Below, in pieces: positions 7,075 through 24,786 of a stretch of DNA of 64,000 nt. Made by a program: the position numbers and the translations under genes. The first letter of the stretch is position 1. Every line of letters starts with the position of its first letter. A model generated the notes under the pieces. It saw only the letters and a program-made list of their open reading frames with translations, did no database searches and was not told where the DNA came from. The stretch comes from Rikenellaceae bacterium (lineage in GTDB: Bacteria; Bacteroidota; Bacteroidia; Bacteroidales; Rikenellaceae): positions 337 through 64,336 of the forward strand of contig JBCQUC010000004.1 of the NCBI GenBank assembly GCA_047174275.1. Reading direction: 5' to 3'.

Positions 7075-8640
7075 ATGATGGAGAGATTTTGTAGTAATGG
7101 AGAGGGAGGTTGTGTTAAAGTTCGAGAGTTGGATATACTCCTCGAAATAACCTCCATGTTGAGCAGCAAGGATATTGATCTAAATGCTGTGATTAATCTA
7201 TTAGCCGAACATTTGGACGTATATCGGCTTTTTCTAACTATCCTCAATCGAGAGAGTCAAAATATTCTAATTGAGGGTGCTTATGGACTATCCGATGCAG
7301 AGAAACGTGATGGAGTCTACCATATTGGGGAGGGTATCATCGGAAAGGTAATTGCAACTGGAGAGCCATATATGATCCCTAACGTTGCGGAGTCTGCGGA
7401 GTTTCTGAACCGCACGAAAGCACCTCTTAACAGTAAAGGTAATTACACCTCATTTATATGTATTCCCGTTAAATATAAGGGCGAAGTGGTTGGTACACTG
7501 AGCTTTCATAAATTGGTTGAGCAGACAAATGTCATGTTTGACGATGAGATGCGATTGCTGCATATTGTCGCAGGTATGGTTGGTCGAACAGTTCGTCGTC
7601 GACAGGAGTACTTCGAGGAGATGGAGAAGCTCAAACGAGAGAATAGTCGTCTACGTAACAATATAATCAGTTATACAACTCAACCAGACAACATTAAAGG
7701 AAAGTCAGGCAAGATGAGTGAGGTCTTCTCGCTTATTGAGAGTGTTGCGGCGACCGATGCAACGGTGATTATTCGCGGTGAGAGTGGTGTGGGAAAGGAG
7801 TTGGTTGCGGATGCAATCCATAGCGGTAGTGTGCGTCGAGACAAACCGTTTATTAAGGTCAATTGTGCGGCACTTCCCGATAGCCTCATTGAGAGTGAGA
7901 TCTTTGGACACGAGAAGGGTGCATTTACAGGTGCTACTCAGCGACATATTGGTCGTTTTGAGGCGGCAAATGGTGGTACAATATTTCTCGATGAGTTGGG
8001 CGATGTTCCAGCATCGACTCAGATCAAACTTCTTCGAGTGCTTCAAGAGCGTGAAATTCAGAGGTTGGGAAGCTCAGAGACTATAAAGGTCGATGTTCGA
8101 GTGATCTGCGCAACCAATAGAAATCTGGAGAAGATGATCGCCGATGGTGAGTTTCGAGAGGATCTATACTATCGACTCAATGTGTTTCCTATCTATATTC
8201 CACCCCTTCGAGAGAGAATCAACGATATCCCTGTTCTTGTTGACCACTTTATCGAGAAGTTCAACAATAGATACAATCGAAAAGTTAAGCGCATAACATC
8301 AATGGCGATTGATACCTTGATTATGTATAATTGGCCTGGAAATATCCGAGAGTTGGAGAACTGTATGGAGCGAGCCTATATTCTTAGTCAAGAGGGTGTT
8401 ATCAGAGTCCACAATCTTCCGCCAACACTTCAAACGGCAGCTTCGTCTCAGACCGCAGCAAAGGGTAGCCTAGGTATAATAATGGGTAATCTGGAGAAGC
8501 AGGTGATCGTCGATGCCCTTATATCGACCAAAGGAAATATCGCAAAGGCGGCAGAGTCGCTATCTATAACAGAGAGAATTATGGGTCTTAGGATCTCGAA
8601 ATATGAGATCGATCCGAAACGCTATAAACCACAAAAATAG
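7075..8640 (+). CDS. nifA: NifA-type sigma54 enhancer-binding protein (GAF-AAA+-HTH)
   Basis: N-terminal [11 protein letters not shown] Walker A, GAFTGA loop, [21 protein letters not shown]-terminal HTH; nif context. The start may be 7078. Confidence 0.9.
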
Positions 8641-9430: not shown

Positions 9431-9670
9431 ATGAGTATTCAGAATGCAATAAATTTCTTGGCACGAGTTCAATCAGATGATGATTATAGACAATCGTGCT
9501 ACAAATTTCGAACGAAACAAGACCTCATGGAATATATACAGCAGGAGGGCTATAGCTTTTCGGATGGGGAGTTTGAAAATGCTATAAACCATCTCCTGCT
9601 GCGATGCTCAGATGCGTCACAGGGGTACGAAGTGCACCACCTGCAAAGCTGGTTTAGTCTGTTTCAGTAG
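9431..9670 (+). CDS. Nif11-like small protein
   Basis: MSIQNAINFLARVQSDDDYRQ...QEGYSFS-E resembles the Nif11 pattern (MS...FL..V..D..LR...GY.FT.EE); AGAGGA ribosome-binding site. Confidence 0.7.
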   Translation: MSIQNAINFLARVQSDDDYRQSCYKFRTKQDLMEYIQQEGYSFSDGEFENAINHLLLRCSDASQGYEVHHLQSWFSLFQ

Positions 9671-10061
9671 CCGATTTTAGTCGTTCGGTTACCAAATCTT
9701 TTAGTTCATTTAGACCCTCGATCATCCTATCAATTTGTGGATTGTCGGGGGTTCTGTATCCAAAGTCATCAATCGAGCAGATACCTTCGAACGAGCCTAC
9801 CAAGACAGCTGTCTTTCTAAGGCTGAGGCTCAAATCTGGCTCGAAATCGTTCACTTCGCGATAGAGCATAAGCGGAAGATGACTCGTTGCAATTGAGTCG
9901 TGGTGCGCCAACCATGCTATCATAAACTTCTCGAAACATATTGCTATCATATTGTATAGCAGATCGTTGTCGAATTTGCGATTCGGATTGCTAAATGATG
10001 ATGTTATTGTGTTGAGGTAACTATTAGCAAAGTCATAGTTATCTTTGGCTAACTCTTTCAT
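9654..10061 (-). CDS. Hypothetical protein with possible HEPN-like fold
   Basis: 135 aa, helical; ICFEKFMIAWL and TSHLPLML resemble the HEPN 'EK.LKA.L' and 'THDL..L' motifs. Confidence 0.6.
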   Translation of the reverse strand: MKELAKDNYDFANSYLNTITSSFSNPNRKFDNDLLYNMIAICFEKFMIAWLAHHDSIATSHLPLMLYREVNDFEPDLSLSLRKTAVLVGSFEGICSIDDFGYRTPDNPQIDRMIEGLNELKDLVTERLKSATETD

Positions 10062-10064
10062 AGT

Positions 10065-10232
10065 TATAGGGGAGTTCTAATAATTCCCTAATTTTAATTT
10101 TTAGTTAATAATTGCCCATTTTTGATTTTGCAAAAGTGGGTTGTAGTGGCTCTACCACCGATTTTTGAAAAATCGAAAAGGGGTGGTTAGTAACTGAAGG
10201 GTATTTTAGGGAATTATTAGAACTCCCCTATA
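10065..10232. mobile_element. Family 3 MITE, copy 2
   Basis: TIRs GGGGAGTTCTAATAATTCCC at both ends (element 10069-10228), TATA on both flanks. Confidence 0.8.
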
Positions 10233-11349
10233 TTGTTTTGTATATTGACAATAGTTCCGTAGGCTCTAAATCTCGTTTGTTGAGTGTGCACCAACGGCGT
10301 ACCTCCTCCAGAAGTCGAGGCAGGATCTCATCTCGGCAGACAACTCCCAACTCCTCTAGTGCAGATTTGAGGGTCGCCATACACGTATGTTTTCCTATCT
10401 TAAATCGACGCTCTGTGAGCCCAATCTCTTCGGCTTTGATAAGTTGATATGTTGATCGATCGCGTTTTAGATACTTCGTGTGGATCCCACTCTCGTGTGT
10501 TAAAACGAGCTCTCCGACAATAGGCTTCGATACGCTGTTTTTGCGTCCCGATATTCTCTCAACATAGCTGCAAATCGAAGGGAATAGAGTCTTGTTGAGC
10601 CCAGTTGTGATACCTGTACTCTTCTCTATAGCCATCACAACCTCCTCCATCGCTGCGTTTCCAGCCCTCTCGCCCAATCCATTAACTGTTGTGCTGAGAG
10701 CATCTGCCCCTGCCATCCATGCCGCTATCGTATTCGCACACGCCATTCCCAAGTCGTTGTGGGCGTGAAACTCAATCGAAATATCAGGGCTGAGATCCCT
10801 TATCGGGCGAATTAGATCTTGTGTCGAGAATGGGTTGAGCAGACCAACTGTATCTGCTAGGCGTATCCTCTTAGCTCCACTCTTAATTGTCTCAAATGCA
10901 AACTCCTCAAGGAAATGGCTGTTAGCACGAGAGGCATCTTGAGCCCCGACACTTACATAATCGAATGTCTCGTAACTCCTCGTAACAATCTCTTGAATCT
11001 CCTTGAGCACCCATTTACGACTCTTACCCATCACTCCAAGCAGTTTGTCTGAGACAGGGAACGATAGATGTATTCCATCCACGCCACTCTTACGTGCAAG
11101 TTCGATCTCCGAAGGCATAGCTCTGCACCATGCCAACATCCTAGCATCGAAATTTGCATCGGTTATCGCCTTGATCTCTTCGATCGCAGCACACCCCATT
11201 GCTGGGGTTCCAACCTCAAACTCACTGACTCCCGCTTCACACAACATCGAGACTAGAGCGAACTTTTCATCGAGGGTAAATGCTACCCCCGACGCTTGTT
11301 CACCGTCACGAAGTGTAGTGTCTACAAATATAGGGTGCTTATAACTCAT
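10228..11349 (-). CDS. nifV: Homocitrate synthase
   Basis: DTTLRDGEQ, LADTVG, HAHNDLGMA, NGLGERAGNA, HESGIH; nif context. Confidence 0.92.
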   Translation of the reverse strand: MSYKHPIFVDTTLRDGEQASGVAFTLDEKFALVSMLCEAGVSEFEVGTPAMGCAAIEEIKAITDANFDARMLAWCRAMPSEIELARKSGVDGIHLSFPVSDKLLGVMGKSRKWVLKEIQEIVTRSYETFDYVSVGAQDASRANSHFLEEFAFETIKSGAKRIRLADTVGLLNPFSTQDLIRPIRDLSPDISIEFHAHNDLGMACANTIAAWMAGADALSTTVNGLGERAGNAAMEEVVMAIEKSTGITTGLNKTLFPSICSYVERISGRKNSVSKPIVGELVLTHESGIHTKYLKRDRSTYQLIKAEEIGLTERRFKIGKHTCMATLKSALEELGVVCRDEILPRLLEEVRRWCTLNKRDLEPTELLSIYKTI

Positions 11350-11358
11350 ATATGCTCT

Positions 11359-11667
11359 TTAGTCACTAATCAAATACTTCTCGCATGCCTCTCCATCTTC
11401 GAGCGCATCAAGGATCTCGTCGATCGCATCCTCGCTATCCACGCCGCCATACCAGAAATTTAGAGGTTGGATAACCATTGCTGGTCCTTGTGAACATACA
11501 TTTAGACAGGCTGTAGTGCTTACCACGACATCTAGTCCGCGGTCGCTTGTCTCCTCGACAATATATTGTAAAAGTTGTGGTGCTCCCTTTTTGTTGCAAA
11601 CACCCAATGCCTCGCCGCTAACTCTGTACGAGTTGCATAGCAGAATGTGATACTGTGGCTTTTTCAT
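11359..11667 (-). CDS. Thioredoxin-like [2Fe-2S] ferredoxin
   Basis: LLCNSYR..C..KG and TACLNVCSQGP..WYG pattern. Confidence 0.88.
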   Translation of the reverse strand: MKKPQYHILLCNSYRVSGEALGVCNKKGAPQLLQYIVEETSDRGLDVVVSTTACLNVCSQGPAMVIQPLNFWYGGVDSEDAIDEILDALEDGEACEKYLISD

Positions 11668-11752
11668 ACCCTGATAATTTTAATGTTAGTTGGTTATTCT
11701 GTTTTGTATTTACTACTTGTTGAAATATAAGTTTTGCTCCGCATTGGAGATT

Positions 11753-11867
11753 GTTGATAGGTGGATGAAATTTTGAAGATGGCGTAGAGGGCTCTGGAAG
11801 GAGCATACTTTAAGTATGTGACTGAAGAGAACTCTATGGTATCTTTAAAATTTCGCCGCCTTGCAAC
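11753..11867 (-). repeat. Family 2 stem-loop/REP element, copy a (after nifB)
   Basis: Imperfect terminal IRs GTTGATAGGTGG...CCGCCTTGCAAC around a central palindrome GCATACTT-T-AAGTATG-TGAC; the shared flank extends to about 11730. Confidence 0.8.
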
Positions 11868-11887
11868 AATCTCTGTTGTGAAGTGGA

Positions 11888-13141
11888 TCAACCGCATCCC
11901 ATTGCGTTCCCCTTGCAGTTTGATCCGCACTTGAAAGCGTCGCGTTTGGCTATAGACTTAATTACGCGGTTGCTATAGATTCCATCCAATCCCTCATCTA
12001 TAAGTCCTGTCATCTCAACAACATTGAGCCCAGAGCTCTTTAGAACCTTAAGTGGTTTGTCACCTACGCCACTTACAAGTAGTGCGCGACAATCTGAAAG
12101 CATCTTTGAGAGCATCTCCCAGCGGATATCACCCAATCCACGATCTGGAGTTTTGCGACTCTCGACCCACTTAAATCCATTTGGCGTTTGGCGATAAATA
12201 TTGAGTGAAGCAGCCTCTCCAAGATGCATATTTACAAGCATACCCTCATTTGTAGCTACGGCAACATATGGACGACTATCTGTGTCAACATCCGAACGCT
12301 GAGCATACTCGCTCATCAGAGCATGCGCTTCGCTCATATCCTGTCCCAAAAGACCAGCGGCATCCGCACGACACCTTGCGCAGTGGCTCATAAGTTTAAG
12401 GTGGTCTGACGCTAATGTGCGAACACGGAAGACCATCTTTGGATCAGGTTGCTCTAGATTCTCGAAAGCGGTGTCGGCAACAGGGATAAGCGGAATGCAG
12501 TTTATAACATCAGCACCCAATTCAGAGCATACTCTAGCAACCTCCTTGATCCCATCCTCGTTGATCGTTGGGATTATAATACTGTTGATCTTTACAGTTA
12601 TACCCTTCGCCTTTAGCTTTGGGATACATGCTAACTGCTTGTCGAGGAGTCTCTTTGCTCCATCTTCGCCTCGATAGATATGCTTTCCATCGCGAACCCA
12701 TTTGTAGATCTTCGCAAGAACCTTTGTGTCGATACTATTTATTGTGATGGTTACGTGGCTAACATTTAGCTCAGCAATCTCATCAATATATGGCTCTAGA
12801 CCAAGTCCATTTGTTGATAGGCAGAAGATCTTATCAGGGAATCTCTCGTGTGCAAGACGCATAGTCTCAAGAGTCTCCTCAGGGTTTGCAAATGGGTCTC
12901 CAGGGCCTGCAATACCAATTACCGACAGGTTTGGCATACGCTTATCGAGCTCCTCAAGATAACCTACAGATTGTTTTGGTGTGAGAATTGTCGATGTCAC
13001 TCCTGGGCGACTCTCGCTTACGCAATCATATTTGCGATTGCAATAGTTGCACTGAATATTGCACTTTGGCGCAACGGGTAGGTGTACTCGTGCGTGGGTA
13101 TGTTTTGCTTCAGCGTCGAAGCATGGGTGCTTGTGTTCCAT
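11888..13141 (-). CDS. nifB: FeMo-cofactor radical SAM protein NifB with C-terminal NifX-like domain
   Basis: HPCF, PKCNIQCNYC (CxxxCxxC), ESRPGV, IAGPGDP, HCARCRADA. Confidence 0.97.
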   Translation of the reverse strand: MEHKHPCFDAEAKHTHARVHLPVAPKCNIQCNYCNRKYDCVSESRPGVTSTILTPKQSVGYLEELDKRMPNLSVIGIAGPGDPFANPEETLETMRLAHERFPDKIFCLSTNGLGLEPYIDEIAELNVSHVTITINSIDTKVLAKIYKWVRDGKHIYRGEDGAKRLLDKQLACIPKLKAKGITVKINSIIIPTINEDGIKEVARVCSELGADVINCIPLIPVADTAFENLEQPDPKMVFRVRTLASDHLKLMSHCARCRADAAGLLGQDMSEAHALMSEYAQRSDVDTDSRPYVAVATNEGMLVNMHLGEAASLNIYRQTPNGFKWVESRKTPDRGLGDIRWEMLSKMLSDCRALLVSGVGDKPLKVLKSSGLNVVEMTGLIDEGLDGIYSNRVIKSIAKRDAFKCGSNCKGNAMGCG

Positions 13142-13145
13142 GATC

Positions 13146-14450
13146 TTAAATGTATTTATACCCTACGGGTGAGTTCTCTTGTTTATACTCTATTAATGCG
13201 TTTACAACTCTATCAAATAGCTCTTGTGTGCCTCGATATCCGATCTTTAACTGACGAGCAGCTCCAAAACGGTCGTGGATCGGGAATCCAACACGTATGA
13301 TTGGGATCTTTAGTTCGCGAGCTATATAGTAACCTTTGCTGCTTCCCATCATAATGTCGGGTTTGATCTGGTTGAGTTTGGCGTGTATCGACTCAAAATC
13401 TGTATCGGTGAACGAATAGACCTCAAGTCCAATCTCCTTGCACCATGCTGATAGTGCCGAGACCAAATCTGCCTCTCCGTAGATTGCGATCTTTTTGCCG
13501 AATAGATATTTGTGAGCATCTACATACGCATCTATCAATCGTCCACGCTCCATCTGATACTTCTTTGGGATCTCAACTCCATACTCAGCACTGAGACACT
13601 CCATAAATCTATCCGAAGCCTCTATGCCAATTGGAATCGGCATCTGGGTGTTTTTTACTCCGCAATCACTCTCCAGCCACTCTCCACCTGTTGGGATACG
13701 CCCGCTCTCGGATGTACGTTTGTAGAACTGGTTGAATCTCTCTCCAAACTCAATGACAGCCTTTGCATCTCCACACTCCTCAATCTCTTTGAGTGGTGTT
13801 CCTCCACTTGGAATAAGTTGATACTCCGCTGTATATACATTGTCGAGTGACTCGCTGTAGTCGGGAAATACCGTCCCCGTAACACCAAAGTCAGCGATGA
13901 TCTCCTTGATATATCTGATATCGGCAGGTGTCACCATTCCTGGTAGAACAACTAGCTTCTCGGTTCGCTTAGTTGACTTTGCGAGTGTCTTTAATGCTGA
14001 GAGAACCGTATTGTGAAACCCTTCGGCATGCGATCCACAGTAGCTAGGTGTCGAACTATGGATAAATGCTGGAAGATTATCCGACATCTTTGCATCGCGG
14101 TAGTTTCTGATGTGACCTGGGATATCCTCACCAATTGTCTCCGAGAGACATGTAGAGGCGATTCCGATCACCTTTGGGTGGTACTGTTTTATTATATTGT
14201 CTATTCCTGTTATGAAGTTTTTACTTCCTCCATATACCGTCGACTCCTCCGAAAAGTTGCTCGATGCAATATCTACGGGCTCTTTGTAGTGGCTAATCAT
14301 ATATCGGCGGATATATGTTGCACACCCTTGTGATCCGTGAATAAGCGGAACACAACCCTCAATCCCCTTGAATACCAACGATGCTCCAAGTGGGGCGCAA
14401 AGTTTGCAAGCGTTGCGCGACGATACGTATGTTTTATCCTCTGTTTTCAT
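13146..14450 (-). CDS. nifN: Nitrogenase cofactor scaffold NifN
   Basis: CAPLGA, HGSQGCATY, TCLSETIGED, GFPIHDR. Confidence 0.92.
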   Translation of the reverse strand: MKTEDKTYVSSRNACKLCAPLGASLVFKGIEGCVPLIHGSQGCATYIRRYMISHYKEPVDIASSNFSEESTVYGGSKNFITGIDNIIKQYHPKVIGIASTCLSETIGEDIPGHIRNYRDAKMSDNLPAFIHSSTPSYCGSHAEGFHNTVLSALKTLAKSTKRTEKLVVLPGMVTPADIRYIKEIIADFGVTGTVFPDYSESLDNVYTAEYQLIPSGGTPLKEIEECGDAKAVIEFGERFNQFYKRTSESGRIPTGGEWLESDCGVKNTQMPIPIGIEASDRFMECLSAEYGVEIPKKYQMERGRLIDAYVDAHKYLFGKKIAIYGEADLVSALSAWCKEIGLEVYSFTDTDFESIHAKLNQIKPDIMMGSSKGYYIARELKIPIIRVGFPIHDRFGAARQLKIGYRGTQELFDRVVNALIEYKQENSPVGYKYI

Positions 14451-15792
14451 CGCTCTCCCTCCTATTTGTTTTTGTAAATTTCCATACTGGAGTCATCGCT
14501 GTGGCGTAGATCTCCTTTGCAAAGTTCAACATCCCCTCGTATCCTGCAAGAGCCTCTTTGCGTTCGTGGTTGTGGTCACAAAAACCGAGTCCAATCTTGT
14601 AGGCTATCGGGCGTTCCTTCACACCTCCGATGAATATATCAGCCTCTTTCTCCTTTACGAAGTGGGAGAGCTCAATAGGGTTCGAGTCATCGACGATCAC
14701 AGTCCCCTCGTCACAAAGATTCTTTATGAGCTCATAATCTTCGGTAGAGCCAGTTTGAGATCCGATGATAACAGTCTTTACTCCGATGAGTCGAAGAGCC
14801 TTCACCAAAGAGATCGCTTTGAATGCTCCGCCGACATATATCGCAGCTCGCTTACCCTCCAAAGCCTCTTTGTATGGTTTTAGTGCAGGGAGCAGTCGAG
14901 TCATCTCGTCGCGGACAATTTCGCGAGCCCTCTCCATCATCTCGTCATCTTTGAAGAATCGAGCAACTTCGTATAGCGCATCGCTCATATCCTCAATTCC
15001 GAAGTATGATACATGCATAAATGGTGTGCCATACTCCTCTTTCATCATCTTGGCAAGGTGGATCATCGAGCCAGAACACTGCACAACATTGAGCCCCGCT
15101 TTGTGGGCGTTGCGAATATCATCGACACGTCCATCGCCAGTGATTGTTGCATTTACGTGGACTCCCATTCGCTTGTAGTATTCGAGCAGAATCCAGAGTT
15201 CACCCGCAAGGTTGAAATCTCCCAAAATATTTATACTCTTCTTGGGAATGTCGCCATCTCCTGTGCCGACCAACTTAAAGAGTGATTCACAAGCTACTTT
15301 GTAGCCATCTTTTTTCGAGCCCTGAAAACCTGGAGCTTGAACAGGTATTGTTGTGACACCAGTCTCCTCGGTCACCTGTTTACAGATCTGCTCAACATCA
15401 TCGCCAATCACACCTACGATACATGTCGTATAGACAAATGCCGCCTTTGGCTGGTGTGCTGCGATAAGCTCTATGAGCGAAGCGTATAACTTCTTTTCGC
15501 CGCCGAAGATTACATCTTTCTCTTGAAGGTCGGTCGAAAAACTTGTTCTGTGAAGTTCGGGCCCCGATGAAAGTGACCCTCGAATGTCCCAAGTGTATGC
15601 AGCGCAACCTATTGGGCCATGAATTATGTGTAAAGCATCCGCAATGGGGTATAGCACAACTCGTGATCCGCAAAAGACACACGCTCGTTGACTCATACTT
15701 CCTGCAAGACTCACTTTGCCAGCCTGAACAGTTGGTGCATCTGCGCCACTTGTCGAGACTTGCCTCTCCCTCTCCTTTAAAATGTGAGCCAT
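14434..15792 (-). CDS. nifE: Nitrogenase cofactor scaffold NifE
   Basis: RACVFCGSR, HGPIGCAAY, TCIVGVIGDD, VQCSGS. Confidence 0.93.
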   Translation of the reverse strand: MAHILKERERQVSTSGADAPTVQAGKVSLAGSMSQRACVFCGSRVVLYPIADALHIIHGPIGCAAYTWDIRGSLSSGPELHRTSFSTDLQEKDVIFGGEKKLYASLIELIAAHQPKAAFVYTTCIVGVIGDDVEQICKQVTEETGVTTIPVQAPGFQGSKKDGYKVACESLFKLVGTGDGDIPKKSINILGDFNLAGELWILLEYYKRMGVHVNATITGDGRVDDIRNAHKAGLNVVQCSGSMIHLAKMMKEEYGTPFMHVSYFGIEDMSDALYEVARFFKDDEMMERAREIVRDEMTRLLPALKPYKEALEGKRAAIYVGGAFKAISLVKALRLIGVKTVIIGSQTGSTEDYELIKNLCDEGTVIVDDSNPIELSHFVKEKEADIFIGGVKERPIAYKIGLGFCDHNHERKEALAGYEGMLNFAKEIYATAMTPVWKFTKTNRRESDENRG

Positions 15793-15808
15793 AACATTGA
15801 TTTTTTTG

Positions 15809-16086
15809 TATTAGTGTCCGATAAAACTTTCCTAGCAGTCCCATGTGAGATACGAAATTGAAAATTTCGTCATCCTGAACTTGTTTCAGGATCCCTGCAT
15901 TATTGATTAAGTTGTTGTGTGCTAATGTATTACAGGGGTTGTGTTGTCGTTTGCTGAGATCCTGAAACAAGTTCAGGATGACGAAATTTTCAATTTCGTA
16001 TCTCAAGTGAGACTATTAAGCCCCTAATTCCACAAACATATACAATCTGTTACAAAGGTTTGTCGGGTTTTTGTCGGACAGTAATA
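15809..16086. mobile_element. Family 1 nested REP-doublet element, copy B (nifK-nifE gap)
   Basis: Same layered IRs as copy A in the opposite orientation; 60-nt spacer; TA flanks. Confidence 0.85.
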
Positions 16087-16105
16087 ATTTTTTTTGTTTT
16101 GTTAA

Positions 16106-16148
16106 TTCGAAGATCTCAACCCTCTAATTTGAGGTTGAAATCTTCGAA
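16106..16148 (-). promoter_or_regulatory. Stem-loop immediately 3' of nifK
   Basis: TTCGAAGATCTCAACCCTC-TAATTT-GAGGTTGAAATCTTCGAA, 9 bp after the nifK stop; no U-tract on the minus strand. Confidence 0.6.
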
Positions 16149-16157
16149 AATATTGTA

Positions 16158-17537
16158 TTACATTTGGAACTCAATAGTCTCCTCTGTGCACTCTCTATCA
16201 CGGTGAGATAGAAGCTCATGGATGATTGAAGTTACCATGTTCGCAGCTCCCTTATAACCAGTCTTAGCGAAGTAGTTGTGACCAGCACGATCGGCGATTG
16301 GGAATCCCATACGATAGAATGGTGTGTTCTCGTCGCGAGCGATATACTTACCATAAGTATTTCCGATCAACAAATCAACACCCTCTTGTTTGATCCACTG
16401 GTGAAGTTGGAACATATCGGCATTTGCACCGCTCTTCCACTTAGCCTCTGGGATATCCTTTAGTAGCTCAGCCATACGCTCCTCGAACTCCTTACCTGGA
16501 GTACCCGTTACGATGTATACTGGACGCATATCCATAGATACAAGGAACTCAACCATTGGGATAAGTGTGTCTGGATCGCCCCACAATGCTACACGCTTGC
16601 CATACAAGTGAACCGAAGCATCTGAGATCAAATCGAGCAACTGACCGCGCTCGTAAGTCAACTCATCCGATACTGGAACGTTTGCGTGGCGGCTGATAGA
16701 TGTCAAGAAACGATCTGTAGCCAAGAATCCGATTGGAATATCAAGAACCTCGAATGGAACTTTACACTGATTCTCCATCTTGATACAAGCGTCGGTTGTA
16801 GTGTATGAACCCAAACCTACAGATACCTTGCTGTCACCGCTTAGGCGGATATCTGCAATTTTAGCACCTCCATCTGGGTACATCTTGTATGTTCCAGTCA
16901 TTGGCCCATCCAATACTCCTGTCATATCTGGGAACATGAATGTGCGACTCTCCATAACCTTGCAAAGTCTCTTGATCTCAGCTTGATCCGATGGCTCCAT
17001 CCAACCCGAAATAAGGTTGATTACGTTGCGTCTCTTGCCTGTTTTTGTGGCAAACGACTTCACCATCGAAGTTACCTGATTTGCATATCCAGTGACGTGT
17101 GTTCCAACATAACTTGGTGTGTTACAGTAGATAACCTCCTTGCCAGCTGGGATAAATCCATCTTCTGCAGCCTTCGATACAATCTGAGTCATATCATCAC
17201 CAATTGTCTCCGAAAGACAAGTTGTGTGAACTGCGATAACCTCTGGGTCGTAAGTTGTGAAGATCGTATTGATCGCCTGAACCAAGTTGGCAGAACCTCC
17301 AAATACTGAAGAACCCTCAGAGAATGAACTTGTAGCTGCCATGATTGGCTCTTTGAAGTGACGTGTAAGTGCACTTCGGTGGTATGAGCAACATCCTTGT
17401 GAACCGTGGCTATGTGGCAAACACCCGTGGATACCGAGTGCCGCGTACATTGCACCAACTGGTTGACAAGTCTTTGCTGGGTTGACCGTCAGAGCTTTTC
17501 TTTCGATCTCCTTATCTGTTGTGTGTCTTAATAACAT
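16158..17537 (-). CDS. nifK: Nitrogenase MoFe protein beta chain
   Basis: NPAKTCQPVGA, HGSQGCCSY, TTCLSETIGDD P-cluster ligands. Confidence 0.97.
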   Translation of the reverse strand: MLLRHTTDKEIERKALTVNPAKTCQPVGAMYAALGIHGCLPHSHGSQGCCSYHRSALTRHFKEPIMAATSSFSEGSSVFGGSANLVQAINTIFTTYDPEVIAVHTTCLSETIGDDMTQIVSKAAEDGFIPAGKEVIYCNTPSYVGTHVTGYANQVTSMVKSFATKTGKRRNVINLISGWMEPSDQAEIKRLCKVMESRTFMFPDMTGVLDGPMTGTYKMYPDGGAKIADIRLSGDSKVSVGLGSYTTTDACIKMENQCKVPFEVLDIPIGFLATDRFLTSISRHANVPVSDELTYERGQLLDLISDASVHLYGKRVALWGDPDTLIPMVEFLVSMDMRPVYIVTGTPGKEFEERMAELLKDIPEAKWKSGANADMFQLHQWIKQEGVDLLIGNTYGKYIARDENTPFYRMGFPIADRAGHNYFAKTGYKGAANMVTSIIHELLSHRDRECTEETIEFQM

Positions 17538-17550
17538 AATCTTTCCCTCT

Positions 17551-19179
17551 TTAATTTAGTACATAGCTTGCCTCAACATATGCCTCACGCTCCCATGGTG
17601 CCTTCAAATATTTGTGAAGTGTAGCGCATGAGATCATCTCGATATCTTTGTAGAAGTTGATAGCACCTGCAAATCCTGCATATGGGCCACCAGAATCGTA
17701 GTTGTGAAGCATCTTCAATGGAATACCCATCTTCTGAGCAACATACTTCTCCTTGATACCTGCACAGAATACATCTGGGTGGTATAGCTCGATCAACTTC
17801 TCCATCTCGTAGTGGCTCAAATCGTCGATAACGAGTGTGCCCTTCTGCATATCTGCCATAAGTCCCTCGTAGTCGTTGAACTCGCCGCCATTCGAGATCT
17901 TTGTCAAGTGCTCATCTGGTTTACGCTTGTTGTAACGCTCCTCATCTTTGTAGACTGTGATCTCCTCGATGTTACGGCTATCGGCATCAACTTGGATTGT
18001 TGGAATCACGCGGCGACCCTCGTAGTCATCACGGTGACCGAACTCATATCCAGCTGCAAGAGTTGTCATACCCAACTCGTTGAATAGCTCTTGGTAGTGG
18101 TGAGCGCGAGATCCACCGACAAACAACATCGCTGTCTTGCCAACTGTCTTTTTGCGAGCCTGCTCAGCTGCAGCCTCAACACGTACCATCTCCTCAGCGA
18201 TAACCTTCTCGATCTGGTCGATAAGCTCCTGATCCTCGAAGTACTCTCCGATTTTGCGAAGTGATTTAGCTGTTGCCTCAGCACCGATGAAGTTACACTT
18301 AGTCCAAGGAATACCGAACGATGTATTCAACATCTCAGCTACGTAGTTGATTGAACGGTGACACATAACAAGACTCAAATCTGCTGTGTGAGCACGCTCA
18401 AACTTAGTCATTGTAGCATTTCCCGACATTGTAGCGATTAGCTCAATTCCGCAACGATCCATCAAATCCTCAATTACGAAAGCGTCACCTCCGATGTTGT
18501 ACTCTCCAAGCAGATTGACACGATACTTGTGCTTGCCCTCGATTGTGTCATCCTTACCGATACAGTTCTTGTAGAGCTGATTGTTCGCGATGTGGTGACC
18601 AGCCGACTGAGATACTCCACGATATCCCTCGCAAGAGAAACCGATGATGTTAACCCCAGGGAACTCCTCCTCCATCTGGCGAGCTACACGGTGAACATCA
18701 TCACCGATAAGACCTACAGGACAAGTTGAGAATACTCCGATCGCCTTTGGGTGGAATAGCTCCATCGCCTCGCGGATCGCCTGCTTTAGCTTCTCCTCAC
18801 CACCGAATACGATGTTTGAGTCCTGCATATCAGTTGAGAAACAGTATGGGATGTAGTTCTCATCCATGTCAGACTCTGGGCGAGTCTGGTTACGACGTGT
18901 AAGCCATGAGTAGAATCCGCAACCGATCGGGCCGTGTGTGATATTTACGATATCACGAGTTGGTCCCATGATTACTCCCTTACAACCTGCGTAAGTACAA
19001 CCACGCTGTGTGATGATACCTGGCACTGTACGTACATTGGCTTGGATCTTTGGGATCAGATCTGGGTCGTTTACGGCAACCGCCTTAGAACGTTTTTTTG
19101 CTACCTTCTTCGGGTACTTCTCAGCTACCGCCTCGACGAACTCCGAAAAATCTGGTAATTTCTTTATATCTTCTTTCAT
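17551..19179 (-). CDS. nifD: Nitrogenase MoFe protein alpha chain (long, group II type)
   Basis: RGCTYAGC, HGPIGCG, TCPVGLIGDD, SAGHHIAN, MCHRSINY, GGSRAHHY, LHNYDSGGPY; about 50-aa insertion (RVIPTIQVDADSRNIEE...). Confidence 0.97.
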   Translation of the reverse strand: MKEDIKKLPDFSEFVEAVAEKYPKKVAKKRSKAVAVNDPDLIPKIQANVRTVPGIITQRGCTYAGCKGVIMGPTRDIVNITHGPIGCGFYSWLTRRNQTRPESDMDENYIPYCFSTDMQDSNIVFGGEEKLKQAIREAMELFHPKAIGVFSTCPVGLIGDDVHRVARQMEEEFPGVNIIGFSCEGYRGVSQSAGHHIANNQLYKNCIGKDDTIEGKHKYRVNLLGEYNIGGDAFVIEDLMDRCGIELIATMSGNATMTKFERAHTADLSLVMCHRSINYVAEMLNTSFGIPWTKCNFIGAEATAKSLRKIGEYFEDQELIDQIEKVIAEEMVRVEAAAEQARKKTVGKTAMLFVGGSRAHHYQELFNELGMTTLAAGYEFGHRDDYEGRRVIPTIQVDADSRNIEEITVYKDEERYNKRKPDEHLTKISNGGEFNDYEGLMADMQKGTLVIDDLSHYEMEKLIELYHPDVFCAGIKEKYVAQKMGIPLKMLHNYDSGGPYAGFAGAINFYKDIEMISCATLHKYLKAPWEREAYVEASYVLN

Positions 19180-19190
19180 AGGAATCTTAT

Positions 19191-19556
19191 TTAATCGAGT
19201 GTGATATCTCCAGTCTCACCTGTGCGGACACGAACTGATTCGAATGTGTTGACCACGAAGATCTTACCATCTCCACTCTTGCCCGTTTGGTTAACCTTAA
19301 TAATTGTCTCTACAGCCAAATCCTTCTTGTCGTCAGTTACAACAAGCGTAATCATACGCTTAGATTTTAGACGTGGATTCTGCTGAATATGCTCGTGGTG
19401 CTCAGGGTCGATACCCTCAGCCTTCTCCAAATCGCCGTGACCCTTACCACGTCCCACAACTGGAAGAGCTGTGAACGATGGTAGATCGACTGCAGAGAGA
19501 GCCTCCTTAGTCTCGGTCATCTTCGCGATACGGATGATTGCCATTATTAACTTCAT
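19191..19556 (-). CDS. nifI2: NifI2, PII-like nitrogenase switch-off protein
   Basis: GRGKG, PKR-like SKRMI, TGKSGDGKIFV, RVRTGE; located between nifH and nifD. Confidence 0.88.
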   Translation of the reverse strand: MKLIMAIIRIAKMTETKEALSAVDLPSFTALPVVGRGKGHGDLEKAEGIDPEHHEHIQQNPRLKSKRMITLVVTDDKKDLAVETIIKVNQTGKSGDGKIFVVNTFESVRVRTGETGDITLD

Positions 19557-19588
19557 AGTAATCTAATTTATTAGTCGTTTTTTGTAAA

Positions 19589-19630
19589 GTTGATAGGTGG
19601 ATGAAATTTGAAATTTCGTCGCATTGCAAC
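19589..19630 (-). repeat. Family 2 element, internally deleted copy b (after nifI1)
   Basis: GTTGATAGGTGGATGAAATTT-GAAATTTCGTCGCATTGCAAC: only the terminal arms remain. Confidence 0.7.
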
Positions 19631-19631
19631 T

Positions 19632-19958
19632 TTACACCTCCATGAATCCTGAAGAGATAGTATAGCACTCCTCAACTGGTGTAACGAAGATCTTACCATC
19701 TCCGAACTGTCCTGTTGCGCTAGAGCGAGCTGAGTTTATGATTGTCTCAATCACAAAATCTTTGTCCTTCTTTTTGATAGTAATCATCAACATCTCCTTT
19801 GGAAGCTCATCATACGTTACGTTTCCAGCCTTGATACCACGCTGCTTACCACGTCCATATACTGCGATCTTTGTAACGGCTGGGAATCCAGCGTCCATCA
19901 ACGACTTCATTACTACTGCCGATTTTTCTGGTCTTACGATTGCTCTAATTAAATACAT
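19632..19958 (-). CDS. nifI1: NifI1, PII-like nitrogenase switch-off protein
   Basis: AIVRPEK, GRGKQRG, YDELPKEML, GQFGDGKIFV. Confidence 0.88.
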   Translation of the reverse strand: MYLIRAIVRPEKSAVVMKSLMDAGFPAVTKIAVYGRGKQRGIKAGNVTYDELPKEMLMITIKKKDKDFVIETIINSARSSATGQFGDGKIFVTPVEECYTISSGFMEV

Positions 19959-19996
19959 TGTCTTGATTTTTTATTTGGTTTGTGTTTTGCTCAAAA

Positions 19997-20111
19997 GTTG
20001 ATAAGTGGATGAGATCTTGTGCATCGTAAGCTGGCGGAGGAGGGAGCATACTTTGGGTATGTGACCGATTGCCGACAGCTTGGGATGTGCAAGATCTCAC
20101 CACCTTGCAAC
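19997..20111 (-). repeat. Family 2 element, copy c (after nifH)
   Basis: GTTGATAAGTGG...GAGCATACTTTGGGTATGTGAC...CCACCTTGCAAC with divergent inner arms. Confidence 0.75.
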
Positions 20112-20117
20112 TTTTGT

Positions 20118-20975
<858 letters not shown>

Positions 20976-21008: not shown

Positions 21009-21024
21009 TGCATTAAGTGTGCCA
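21009..21024 (-). promoter_or_regulatory. Sigma54 (-24/-12) promoter of nifH
   Basis: Minus strand TGGCAC-ACTTA-ATGCA with correct GG-N10-GC spacing, about 65 bp upstream of the ATG. Confidence 0.85.
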
Positions 21025-21155
21025 AAAAGTCTACTTGGATGAAATAAATTCAAAATTATTTTGTAATACTCTGTTTTATAGCGAGTTGTAGTCGTGGTAT
21101 TTTTTGACTGATTTTTGGTTTAAATAATCTGAGTTATTAAGTATATTTAAAATAT

Positions 21156-21197
21156 TACATTTCTGTAGCTTTTCTTATGTGGATGTAGCAAAATGTA
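21156..21197. promoter_or_regulatory. Candidate activator-binding region of the nifH promoter
   Basis: TACA-TTTC-TGTA at 21156-21167 plus TGTA half-sites at 21184 and 21194. Confidence 0.5.
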
Positions 21198-21298
21198 GGA
21201 AATTGGTTTTGAATGTTATTTTTGTCTGCTAATTTTTATTTAGCACTTTCGTTGCATCACGTTTAGACTCTGAGAGGGTCGCTATTTTGAATCACCTT

Positions 21299-21539
21299 TA
21301 TTAGTGTTCGATAAAACTTTTCTAGCAGTCCTACTTGAGATACGAAATTGAAAATTTCGTCATCCTGAACTTGTTTCAGGATCTCTACATCATTGAGTAA
21401 GCTATTGCTTATTAGTATATTACAGAGGCGATATTGTCATTTGCTGAGATCCTGAAACAAGTTCAGGATGACGAATCCGTTGGATTCGATAACATGGTGC
21501 CAATAAAGTTGTTACAAGTGTTGTTATCGGACACTGATA
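21299..21539. mobile_element. Family 1 nested REP-doublet element, copy C
   Basis: Outer TIRs with TA flanks, REP doublet, 60-nt spacer; an extra REP remnant follows at 21545-21557. Confidence 0.85.
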
Positions 21540-21570
21540 AACTCGTTTCAGGATCTCCGCAGAGCTAATT

Positions 21571-22320
21571 TTAATATGTTACAGTCGAAAGCCTACACTC
21601 TATAATAGAGTTGCATTTTTTGTGTCGTTTAAAGAAGAAGGATCTTCCGCCACAACTCTCCGTATGTGTCGATATAACTCGATCCTCCCCCTTTGAAAAT
21701 CCAAAGTGTAGGATTGAGGTCGCCATAGCTGTAATATCTGCTGGGTCGTGACACACCATTAGTGTGATGCTTCCAAGCATTTTGTGTGCCTGCTTGATAC
21801 TCTCTCTGAGTGACTCCTTTAACTCCCAATCTAGGGCGGAGAATGGTTCATCGAGTAGCAACATTGATGGCTCTGAAGCTATCGCACGAGCCAAAGCGAC
21901 ACGTTGCTTCTGCCCACCTGAGAGCTGTTGAGGGTATCGAGAGTGGAGTGCGCCGATATTGAAACACTCAAGCAACTCCATTATCTTCTGTTCATCTTTG
22001 TTTGGTTGAGCGTACAGAATCTGCTCAAATACCGTCATATTTGGAAATAGCGCAAAATCCTGAAACATCAACCCTGTTCTACGCTTCGATGCTGGCACAA
22101 ATATTCTCTTGTCGGTGTCGCACCACACCTCTCCATCAAATACTACACGACCTCTGTGAGGCTTCACAAGCCCCGATATAATCCTTAGTAGGGTAGTCTT
22201 GCCAATTCCCGATGCACCCTGCAAACAGACAATATCCCCCAAATTTAGATCTGCACGTACCTCCAAAAGAGATCTACCTTCGACTGTGTAGAGTGGCTGT
22301 TTGATATCAATTTCCAACAT
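21571..22320 (-). CDS. modC: Molybdate ABC transporter ATPase
   Basis: GASGIGKT, LSGGQKQRVALARA, LLLDEPF; mod context. Confidence 0.9.
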   Translation of the reverse strand: MLEIDIKQPLYTVEGRSLLEVRADLNLGDIVCLQGASGIGKTTLLRIISGLVKPHRGRVVFDGEVWCDTDKRIFVPASKRRTGLMFQDFALFPNMTVFEQILYAQPNKDEQKIMELLECFNIGALHSRYPQQLSGGQKQRVALARAIASEPSMLLLDEPFSALDWELKESLRESIKQAHKMLGSITLMVCHDPADITAMATSILHFGFSKGEDRVISTHTESCGGRSFFFKRHKKCNSIIECRLSTVTY

Positions 22321-23002
22321 AATCGTTTTGGTTTTTGTGTGACCTATTATTGAAACTGTAGATTATTGTGAGTAGTACCACTGCGATTACAAATAGCACA
22401 ATCGAGTATCTATTTGCATTATCATATTGGAGTGCCTGCACCTGATCGTATATTGCAATTGATGCTACGCGAGTCTCGCCTGGGATATTTCCACCAACCA
22501 TAATTATAACACCAAACTCACCGATGCAGTGTGCAAACGATAGGGCTAGCGATGTTATAATAGATGGCATCATATTGGGAAGTAGGACTCGAAAGAATAT
22601 GCTTAACTTTGATTTGCCCAATGTCTCGGCGGCATCGCTCAAATTTCGAGGTATAGAGATAAACCCCGATTGAAGGGGTTGAATCATGATCGGGAGTCCA
22701 AAGAGGACGCTACCAATCAATATCCCCTCGAAGCTAAATGCGAGTCGACTATCGAATGTCTCGTACCACCAAGTGCCAAACCATGAGTTTGGGCTATATA
22801 ACATAAGTAGGTAGAATCCCAAAACTATTGGTGGCAACACCATCGGAATGCTAATCAGTGCCTCGATAAGAGAGCGCGCAAAGAAGCGTTTGTATGCCAA
22901 AAAATAGGCTATCGGCAACCCTATTATAAATAGTATTGCCGTAGTGCTAAATGCGAGTTTGCCAGTGAGGAGTAGTGTCTCCCAAAAATCTGCGTCATTC
23001 AT
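22307..23002 (-). CDS. modB: Molybdate ABC transporter permease
   Basis: PMVLPPIVLGFYLL, EAA-like AAETLG, GEFG, GNIPGETR. Confidence 0.93.
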   Translation of the reverse strand: MNDADFWETLLLTGKLAFSTTAILFIIGLPIAYFLAYKRFFARSLIEALISIPMVLPPIVLGFYLLMLYSPNSWFGTWWYETFDSRLAFSFEGILIGSVLFGLPIMIQPLQSGFISIPRNLSDAAETLGKSKLSIFFRVLLPNMMPSIITSLALSFAHCIGEFGVIIMVGGNIPGETRVASIAIYDQVQALQYDNANRYSIVLFVIAVVLLTIIYSFNNRSHKNQNDYVGN

Positions 23003-23071
23003 GAAATTTCCCCCAAAATTTATAAATTAGAGATTATTGCAAAACGGTAGTTTTGCTCCGCTATGGAGAGT

Positions 23072-23185
23072 GTTGATAGGTGGATGAAAATTTAAAGATG
23101 GCGTAGAGGGCCCTGAAAGGAGCATACTGAAGTATGTGACTGAAGAGAACTCTGCGTTATCTTTGAATTTTCGCCGCCTTGCAAC
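23072..23185 (-). repeat. Family 2 element, copy d (after modA)
   Basis: Near-identical to copy a, including the left flank AGTTTTGCTCCGC. Confidence 0.8.
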
Positions 23186-23193
23186 GCTCTCAA

Positions 23194-23946
23194 TTATTTT
23201 ACTATATCGTATCCGTACTTCAACCATATGGGCTTCGACTCTGCGGATAGTACAAAGTCCCGAAACTTTATAGCCTCAAGATTCTCTATTTTTTGCTTAA
23301 CCACAACACAGCTCTGAATTATTGGGCTGTATAGGTTGTCTGGAATAATATACGTATATCCATTGTTTTGAGCCGTTGGTGATCTGTGTTGGGATAGGGC
23401 AATCACTCCAAGATCTGCATTGCCCGAGAATACATACTGTGCAGTAGCTCCGATATTCTCTCCATATATAATCTTTGATTTTACATCGTTATATATTCCT
23501 ATGTTGTTCAACATCTCAATGGCGTGTACTCCATATGGTGCGGCGTTTGGATTTGCGATGGCTATTCTGTGTGATTTGTTGAGCGTCAATGCGTCGAGCC
23601 CGATCTGTGAGATATCTATTGAGCGGCTATATAGGAGTAGTTTTCCGCATGCATAGGGTCTCACTTCGCCTGTTGTGTAGCCTCCGCTCTTTAGTTTGAG
23701 TGCATAATCTTCATCTGCGGAGAAGAATAGGTCGTAGCCTGCGCCATTCACGATCTGTTGCACCAACATTCCAGATCCTCCGTAGTTGATATTGATTGCA
23801 ACTTTTGGGTTGCTCTCTATATATATAGACTTGATCTCATCCATTGCATCGCGAACGTTTGCGGCAGCGGCAATGCTTACAACACTCTGGGCATAGGTAT
23901 TGGCTGAAAAGACAATACAGATAATAAATAATAGGGCTCTCTTCAT
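23194..23946 (-). CDS. modA: Molybdate-binding periplasmic protein
   Basis: Signal peptide, AAAAN, GGSGML.QQI.NGA.YDLFFSA, ANP.AAPYG. Confidence 0.93.
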   Translation of the reverse strand: MKRALLFIICIVFSANTYAQSVVSIAAAANVRDAMDEIKSIYIESNPKVAININYGGSGMLVQQIVNGAGYDLFFSADEDYALKLKSGGYTTGEVRPYACGKLLLYSRSIDISQIGLDALTLNKSHRIAIANPNAAPYGVHAIEMLNNIGIYNDVKSKIIYGENIGATAQYVFSGNADLGVIALSQHRSPTAQNNGYTYIIPDNLYSPIIQSCVVVKQKIENLEAIKFRDFVLSAESKPIWLKYGYDIVK

Positions 23947-23976
23947 ATCATAAAATAATTTATTATATATGATAGA

Positions 23977-23991
23977 GCATTATCTGTGCCA
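23977..23991 (-). promoter_or_regulatory. Sigma54 (-24/-12) promoter of modA
   Basis: Minus strand TGGCAC-AGATA-ATGC; flank TTTATT-N2-ATCCA-N6-CTTTT shared with the nifH promoter. Confidence 0.8.
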
Positions 23992-24113
23992 AAAAGGTGT
24001 GGTGGATATAATAAAAAGATTTTTTAAGGGGTTGTTGTTTGATAATCAGTGTGTTATCAATAGGGGTGTATTGAAGATGAAAACACCTTTAAAGAGCTAG
24101 ATTTGAAAAATAT

Positions 24114-24146
24114 TACATAAATGTAGGCTCTCGTTACAGATATGTA
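24114..24146. promoter_or_regulatory. Candidate activator-binding region of the modA promoter
   Basis: Two TACA-N4-TGTA palindromes at 24114-24125 and 24135-24146. Confidence 0.55.
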
Positions 24147-24222
24147 AGAAAAAACTCGCAAAAGATCTGTGTCGAAATTGTTCAATACTCATCTTTTGCG
24201 AGTTATATTTAGGGGGGGAGAC

Positions 24223-24786
24223 CTAGAACTTATACGAGAATCCCATATTAACAATCGAGATACCGTAACCGATCTCACTGTTGATTGCAAAGTTCCTGAA
24301 TATATAGTATCGAGCACCAACATGGACATTATAGACTATCCCTTTGTCGGCTCCGCTGACTTTGTCACCGATGATAAGCTCAACATCGTCATCGTCCCAA
24401 TTAACATAGGTGAGTCGAAAGTCGTATCCTATGCGGAATCCTCCATAAAGATCCAACCTCTTCACATTTGTCTTGCGGTGATAATTTGCACCTACAGCGA
24501 CAAATATATCATCATAATCGAATGTTCCATATGTATCATCTTTGTCTGCTCCATACTGTATATCGTCTTTGCTCCATGCGTAGCCCAGATATCCATTGAG
24601 TCCAATTGATGATTTCTCATTGATGTTGTAGACTCCGACCTCGTAGGATAGTGATAGTGGGCAGTCATAAATATTGCTGTAGCCAGCACTTACAGATAGT
24701 ACTTTCGAACCCTTTTTGAAGTTCTGAGCCGATGCTACCGATACAAAGCAGAGCATTGAAGCGACTAAAAATAGAATTTTTCTCAT
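24223..24786 (-). CDS. Outer-membrane beta-barrel protein
   Basis: Signal peptide (ASA-Q), alternating aromatic beta-strands, C-terminal GFSYKF. Confidence 0.8.
   Translation of the reverse strand: MRKILFLVASMLCFVSVASAQNFKKGSKVLSVSAGYSNIYDCPLSLSYEVGVYNINEKSSIGLNGYLGYAWSKDDIQYGADKDDTYGTFDYDDIFVAVGANYHRKTNVKRLDLYGGFRIGYDFRLTYVNWDDDDVELIIGDKVSGADKGIVYNVHVGARYYIFRNFAINSEIGYGISIVNMGFSYKF

Follow-up and report, generated by a model that had tools for sequence, protein, structure and literature searches.

TAC-N6-GTA dyads upstream of the sigma54 promoters of nifH and modA in a Rikenellaceae bacterium: predicted activator sites of a NifA-like protein

What switches on the nitrogenase and molybdate transport genes of a Rikenellaceae bacterium in which the canonical NifA site TGT-N10-ACA is absent from the 260 bp upstream of the nifH and modA promoters? 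We addressed this question for a stretch of 64,000 nucleotides (hereafter the window; GenBank assembly GCA_047174275.1, contig JBCQUC010000004.1, positions 337 to 64,336) from a genome of 2.2 Mb (116 contigs, 44% G+C), in which nifH and modA are each preceded by a sigma54 promoter and, farther upstream, by short inverted repeats (dyads). The initial annotation had read these dyads as a NifA binding site that was specific to the lineage and not recognised from any described regulon. Our comparison makes it likely that they are upstream activator sites bound by the NifA-like protein P0001, which would switch on the nif operon and modABC from the sigma54 promoters. The idea of a NifA-type binding site thus stands as a prediction, as the dyads are conserved and positioned like upstream activator sites of a nif-linked NifA-like activator, but the site is neither lineage-specific nor undescribed. 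The features on which the argument turns are as follows.

20118-20942, minus strand: nifH (NCBIfam TIGR01287)
23194-23946, minus strand: modA (NCBIfam TIGR01256)
21010-21024, minus strand: sigma54 promoter of the nifH operon, TGGCAC-N5-ATGC, first G of the GG at 21023, 81 nt before the nifH ATG
23977-23991, minus strand: sigma54 promoter of modABC, TGGCAC-N5-ATGC, first G of the GG at 23990, 44 nt before the modA ATG
21155-21168, minus strand: nifH dyad CTACAGAAATGTAA, exact TAC-N6-GTA, centre 138 bp upstream of the GG
21175-21198, minus strand: degenerate distal nifH sites CTACATCCACATAA (5 of 6 core bases, centre at -158) and CTACATTTTGCTAC (centre at -168)
24113-24126, minus strand: proximal modA dyad CTACATTTATGTAA, centre at -129
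24134-24147, minus strand: distal modA dyad TTACATATCTGTAA, centre at -150, 21 bp (two helical turns) from the proximal dyad
7075-8640, plus strand: P0001, NifA-like enhancer-binding protein, 521 aa (Pfam GAF, Sigma54_activat, AAA_lid_14, HTH_8)

The shared promoter pattern that had been noted at nifH and modA was recovered exactly at both places, with the 39-nt sequence TTTATT-N2-ATCCA-N6-CTTTTTGGCAC-N5-ATGC matching at 21010-21048 and 23977-24015 and no match expected from 100 shuffles. Both promoters have the -24 GG and -12 GC elements at canonical spacing. Upstream of them, the 20-mer CTACA-N3-ATGTAATATTTT has two exact matches in the window (21149-21168 and 24107-24126, none expected) and was found nowhere else in the genome. 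The palindrome TACA-N4-TGTA lies at 21156-21167 in front of nifH and at 24114-24125 and 24135-24146 in front of modA, and its five occurrences in the window (0.85 expected) were not reached in any shuffle. The geometry given in the initial annotation was borne out: the TACA starts 133 bp from the GG at nifH and 124 bp at modA, the coordinates place the two modA palindromes 21 bp apart, the nifH half-sites 20 and 30 bp further on (TGTAG at 21184 and 21194) are the degenerate distal sites listed above, and TGT-N10-ACA was indeed missing from the 260 bp upstream of nifH. The conserved unit is wider than the TACA-N4-TGTA described at first, and comprises a 14-16 bp dyad, cCTACA-N4-TGTAGg, with TAC-N6-GTA as its core.

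Conservation was assessed in 80 nifH loci from species-representative genomes, three from relatives of the same order and four Rikenellaceae contigs reached through modA homologues. An exact TAC-N6-GTA was present in 37 of the 38 nifH and modA promoter regions of Bacteroidota, at 74-222 bp upstream of the -24 GG, so that the motif is conserved in orthologous promoters; the 60 exact sites in these regions gave the consensus cCTACAtwwaTGTAGg. Between -300 and -100 of the nifH ATG the density was 7.6 sites per kb, as opposed to 0.28 per kb elsewhere in these loci; the 38 sites observed compare with 1.6 on average, and 9 at most, after shuffling. Since the sequence flanking the dyads is unrelated between families, we regard this as a true phylogenetic footprint. 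Position followed a rule, in that the proximal nifH dyad has its centre between -138 and -140 in the window and the four Rikenellaceae relatives alike. A second site lies at -158 to -161 in these relatives; its core is exact in L102 and L104, and a single core base deviates in L101 and in L103. Upstream of modA, the sigma54 promoter and dyads were present in 4/4 Rikenellaceae relatives, as a pair 20-21 bp apart in L101 and L102. Among genomes the gap between dyads ranged from about 19 to 40 bp, centre to centre, and was 100 bp in some, with the spacing within the dyad invariant. The site is not restricted to one lineage, as had been proposed, because exact dyads, frequently in pairs, were likewise found in front of nifH in Chlorobiales, Fibrobacterota, Verrucomicrobiota and Spirochaetota and in 14 of 30 Desulfobacterota loci.

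Within the genome, only two of the 32 sigma54-like sites, those of nifH and modA, have TACA-N4-TGTA within 260 bp upstream. A whole-genome scan for the enhancer-promoter pair, using the dyad at 60-240 bp upstream of a loose sigma54 pattern, returned three convincing hits, and so defined a candidate regulon consisting of nifH, modA and one gene outside the window:

contig C108, 8340-9750 (locus L105, 1840-3250): porin gene, 383 aa (Pfam Porin_2 and DcaP)

The porin gene has the sigma54-like promoter TTTTGGCATACTATTTGA and, about 127-148 bp upstream of it, the dyads ATACATTTTCGTAG and CTACCTAGATGTCG, which are 21 bp apart. A Rikenellaceae relative has a porin gene between modC and nifH whose product shares 60% identity with the C108 porin, which places the C108 gene in the same functional unit as mod and nif. 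The regulon probably includes this gene as its third member. The dyad alone was rejected as a definition of the regulon, since its 104 near-matches genome-wide make it informative only together with a sigma54 promoter. In a Paludibacter metagenome-assembled genome (MAG; locus L099, 1-90), the palindrome TAGCGATATTC-N8-GAATATCGCTA precedes a porin-modA operon, at the place where Rikenellaceae have the sigma54 promoter and dyads, and may be a molybdate-responsive operator.

The genome encodes a single RpoN (PF04552 match) and three sigma54 activators, namely P0001, a receiver-AAA+ protein without a helix-turn-helix (HTH) domain, and an AAA+-HTH protein without a sensor domain (contig C110). P0001 consists of an N-terminal C-x6-C, a GAF domain, an AAA+ sigma54-interaction domain (PF00158) with the GAFTGA motif, and a Fis-type HTH. 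Of 40 relatives, three have nifH, and full-length orthologues (54-58% identity, E <= 1e-177) were present in all three and in no other; in two of them the orthologous gene directly adjoins nifH. The other two activator types were present in all non-diazotrophic relatives searched. Against the nifA equivalog model TIGR01817, P0001 scored 503.2 bits, which is below the cut-off of 528.85, with the alignment stopping at model position 447 of 534. The cysteines C6-x6-C13 were conserved in 10 of 12 aligned homologues, with a spacing unlike the published cysteine motifs of AnfA and VnfA. The linker between the AAA+ and HTH domains holds a single Cys, and P0001 therefore lacks the multi-Cys interdomain motif of many NifA proteins.

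The recognition helix of P0001 differs from that of the solved NifA (PDB 9qq6, TPRQIAYRIQ) at five of the first seven positions. In the alignment to chain 9qq6_C, P0001 differs from the NifA segment MTPRQIAYRIQTL, and the NifA-type recognition helix GWVQAKAARLLGMTPRQIAYRIQ is not present in it. We compared helix and motif in 26 loci with a NifA-like gene neighbouring nifH. Helices of the 'ITER-MG(L/I)R' class, with the general form '(I/V/L)(T/S)(E/N)R-x-(M/L/I)-G-x-R', from Bacteroidota, a spirochaete and an unclassified MAG, occurred with TAC-N6-GTA in 12 of 13 loci, and 'TPRQ(L/M)GY(R/K)' helices from Desulfobacterota paired with xACA-N4-TGTx, for example GACA-N4-TGTC. The 'RMVRYK' helices of Holophaga and Planctomycetota paired with neither motif, with the exception of an unclassified MAG (L032) that has GACA-N4-TGTC dyads. 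Upstream of nifH in five Desulfobacterota loci (L074, L080, L081, L086 and L035), dyads of the form (C/T)GACA-N4-TGTC(G/A) adjoin NifA-like genes with a near-canonical NifA helix, and some of these loci carry TGT-N10-ACA too. Desulfobacterota relatives of NifA with a near-canonical helix may use an ACA-N4-TGT arrangement.

In the mechanism that we propose, P0001 dimers would bind cCTACA-N4-TGTAGg at about 130-150 bp upstream of the two sigma54 promoters. Two dyads spaced by 20-21 bp would face the same side of the DNA, an arrangement suggestive of cooperative binding. DNA looping and ATP hydrolysis by the activator would then open the sigma54 closed complexes, so that the nifHI1I2DKENB...V operon and modABC would be switched on together, probably with the porin gene as third target. 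By analogy with AnfA and VnfA, the N-terminal C-x6-C and the GAF domain probably gate P0001 by redox state or by a metabolite. Binding, cooperativity and the signal sensed are all deduced from sequence.

Several observations weigh against this assignment. Promoters related by descent are not independent samples, and the counts given above overstate their independence. One orthologous promoter (G036) carries the dyad only in a form with one mismatch. The arrangement at modA is a different one in Paludibacter and in a 'Bacteroides sp.' MAG, where modA comes after a porin gene and the sequence upstream of modA lacks both the sigma54 promoter and the dyad. Moreover, CTACA-N4-TGTAG precedes nifH in phyla whose adjacent activator has a different recognition helix, and TAC-N6-GTA also accompanies the helices 'LTLRQMGYR' in Desulfosarcina and 'ISHTALLDKMRRH' in the Desulfovibrio candidate DVUA0143; with one DNA motif adjoining activators with different helices, the link from helix to motif is not one-to-one. 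This last point would fit dyads bound by another factor, such as a global nitrogen or redox regulator or a repressor, that merely co-occurs with nif promoters across phyla. We consider this unlikely. The spacing between the sites and the sigma54 promoters is fixed, enhancer-like and phased by 10 bp; sigma54 promoters depend on a bound activator, and no activator other than P0001 both is linked to nif and has an HTH; and no other regulator gene is conserved beside the compared loci.

The sensor-less activator on contig C110 also has a Fis-type HTH and might bind the dyads in place of P0001, but its type is present in all non-diazotrophic relatives, which lack the nif genes and a full-length P0001 orthologue, and it is not linked to nif or mod, which makes it a very improbable candidate. 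Much the same low standing is given to the proposal that the likeness of the nifH and modA promoters is a functionless leftover of a recent duplication or gene conversion. The two promoters do resemble each other more than their orthologues, and three features that they share but that relatives do not conserve are the ATGC -12 element, the AATATTTT flank and the TTTATT-N2-ATCCA block. By contrast, conservation of the dyad core and of its position extends across families and phyla with unrelated flanks, which leaves this explanation with scarcely any probability. Finally, canonical NifA sites could be read across neighbouring palindromes, since the TGTA-N9-TACA between the modA dyads can be taken as TGT-N11-ACA, an alternative that the initial annotation had allowed for. 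We rejected the TGT-N10/11-ACA reading, as nifH offers no such site, the gap between dyads varies among genomes with the spacing inside the dyad fixed, and the HTH of P0001 is unlike that of canonical NifA; it is the least credible of the explanations considered.

The putative targets of P0001 in the window, and a hairpin next to them, are located as follows.

9654-20942, minus strand: operon nifH-nifI1-nifI2-nifD-nifK-nifE-nifN-nifB-(small open reading frame)-nifV-like (homocitrate synthase)-(open reading frame), putative target
21571-23946, minus strand: operon modA-modB-modC (molybdate ABC transporter), 5' of nifH, putative target
24153-24204, minus strand: hairpin followed by a T-run (inverted repeat I3; six T follow on the gene strand)

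No further sigma54-like site was detected in the interior of the nif operon (9654-20942). The hairpin and T-run at 24153-24204 lie directly upstream of the distal modA dyad, and probably serve as intrinsic terminator for an outer-membrane beta-barrel gene (24223-24786) and as insulation for the modA enhancer. At 21356-21475 and 21540-21561 of the window, in the interval from modC to the nifH enhancer, lies an inverted repeat of 30 nt without mismatches (TTCGTCATCCTGAACTTGTTTCAGGATCTC), accompanied by a partial third copy. Its core ATCCTGAACTTGTTTCAGGAT has 736 matches genome-wide on both strands at up to two mismatches, which, as the core is nearly palindromic, corresponds to about 370 places, and the repeat is a very abundant element resembling repetitive extragenic palindromes (REP) or miniature inverted-repeat transposable elements (MITE). 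The genus was sampled with 24 genomes, all of which lack both nifH and a full-length P0001 orthologue; the nif-mod locus is hence patchy in distribution, having been either acquired or widely lost.

The TTTATT-N2-ATCCA block was rejected as a functional element of the promoters, as it is absent from the four Rikenellaceae relatives, in which only the T-run and TGGCAC are kept. The -12 element varies across Bacteroidota between TGC, TGA and TGT; in other Bacteroidota nifH promoters (L012-L024, L034, L059 and L089) it mostly has the form (A/T)TGA or TGT instead of TTGC, as in TGGCACGAAAGATGA, and sigma54 of Bacteroidota may tolerate or prefer a base other than C at the last -12 position. In seven Marinilabiliales-type loci (L040, L059, L068, L070, L076, L089 and L020), a conserved GTGCCAAA was found 10-20 bp from the proximal dyad. 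It is the reverse complement of the -24-like sequence TTTGGCAC, and a matching -12 element was absent from these loci.

A search of the literature gave no description of the regulation of nitrogen fixation in Bacteroidota, and the one survey of nif genes in Bacteroidetes that was found notes nifA and modABC near the clusters, without promoter analysis (PMC4356463). What is new here is that Bacteroidota nif promoters join those with this site, that in Rikenellaceae modABC and a porin are predicted to be governed by the same switch, and that the class of recognition helix goes with the motif. For diazotrophic Rikenellaceae of gut and sediment this amounts to a testable regulon of one activator, the TAC-N6-GTA dyad and three sigma54 promoters (nif, modABC and porin). 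In anaerobic lineages the site commonly found before nifH is of the 'AnfA-type' and not that of textbook NifA, which is useful for annotating nif regulation in metagenomes and for choosing parts when nif expression is engineered. A more speculative view, which we regard as possible but hold only tentatively, is that CTACA-N4-TGTAG with a GAF-type sigma54 activator is an ancestral nitrogenase switch of anaerobes at large, extended in Rikenellaceae to modABC and the porin, with the proteobacterial AnfA and VnfA as offshoots and TGT-N10-ACA as a derived exception.

The canonical NifA of Proteobacteria binds the upstream activator sequence TGT-N10-ACA and activates the sigma54 promoter of nifH from about 100-150 bp upstream. 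P0001 resembles it in being a nif-linked GAF-AAA+-HTH protein, but differs in its recognition helix, in its score below the TIGR01817 cut-off and in the lack of the interdomain Cys motif; the window also lacks TGT-N10-ACA at nifH and modA, and its nif operon carries nifI1 and nifI2.

A closer parallel for the site comes from the predictions of Kazakov et al. in 2015, which place sites of the type CTACAAAAATGTAG before nif operons of five genomes of Desulfovibrionales (PMC4641369, Additional file 4). These sites were assigned to the activator DVUA0143, of which the N-terminal domain resembles that of AnfA and VnfA, and a related motif was predicted for the nitrogen-assimilation regulator DVU1949 (PMC4641369). 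The same 14-mer (e.g. CTACAAAAATGTAG and CTACATTTTTGTAG) is found in both systems upstream of nifH-nifI1-nifI2-nifDK operons with sigma54 promoters. DVUA0143 differs in that its helix is unlike that of P0001, its gene is not adjacent to nif, its sites are computational only and modABC is not among its listed targets in D. vulgaris.

The consensus of AnfA, TAC-N6-GTA, was defined by promoter mutants and electrophoretic mobility shift assays in Rhodobacter capsulatus, where a terminator, two sites and a sigma54 promoter stand in this order (PMC7294313). The window dyads share the core and spacing of these sites, and the order in front of modA, from the hairpin at 24153-24204 through two dyads to the sigma54 promoter, is that of the AnfA arrangement. 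P0001 has the GAF-AAA+-HTH architecture of AnfA. Cysteines precede the GAF domain in both proteins, as C-x6-C in P0001 and at residues 21-26 in A. vinelandii AnfA, and may be counterparts. The dyads of Bacteroidota additionally conserve a flanking C/G (CTAC...GTAG), and the putative targets are the Mo-nitrogenase (nif) and modABC, whereas that of AnfA is the Fe-only nitrogenase. A tie of P0001 to AnfA by synteny was rejected, as no match to AnfG or VnfG was found in the genome under study, in five Paludibacter-type genomes or in 401 sampled genomes of the order. In the search for named AnfA and VnfA sequences, C-terminal words were matched only in Rikenellaceae-type relatives, and tblastn against plasmids returned only weak sigma54 regulators.

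VnfA of Azotobacter vinelandii binds GTAC-N6-GTAC or, as determined by chromatin immunoprecipitation sequencing, GT(T/A)C-N6-GTAC, usually in pairs, and VnfA1 activates a modABC operon (modA2B2C2) from a sigma54 promoter (PMC9542535). The window dyads share with these sites the TAC-N6-GTA core, its spacing and the pairing, and a modABC operon is a target of VnfA1 and a predicted one of P0001. The outer base is inverted between G and C (GTAC for VnfA, CTAC in the window), and VnfA belongs to a different phylum, serves the V-nitrogenase and works with paralogues. The site is thus not absent from described regulons, as had been supposed: TAC-N6-GTA is the consensus of AnfA, resembles that of VnfA and has been predicted at the nif operons of sulfate-reducing Desulfovibrionales, and the window therefore provides a new example of a described type of site, and not a new mechanism.

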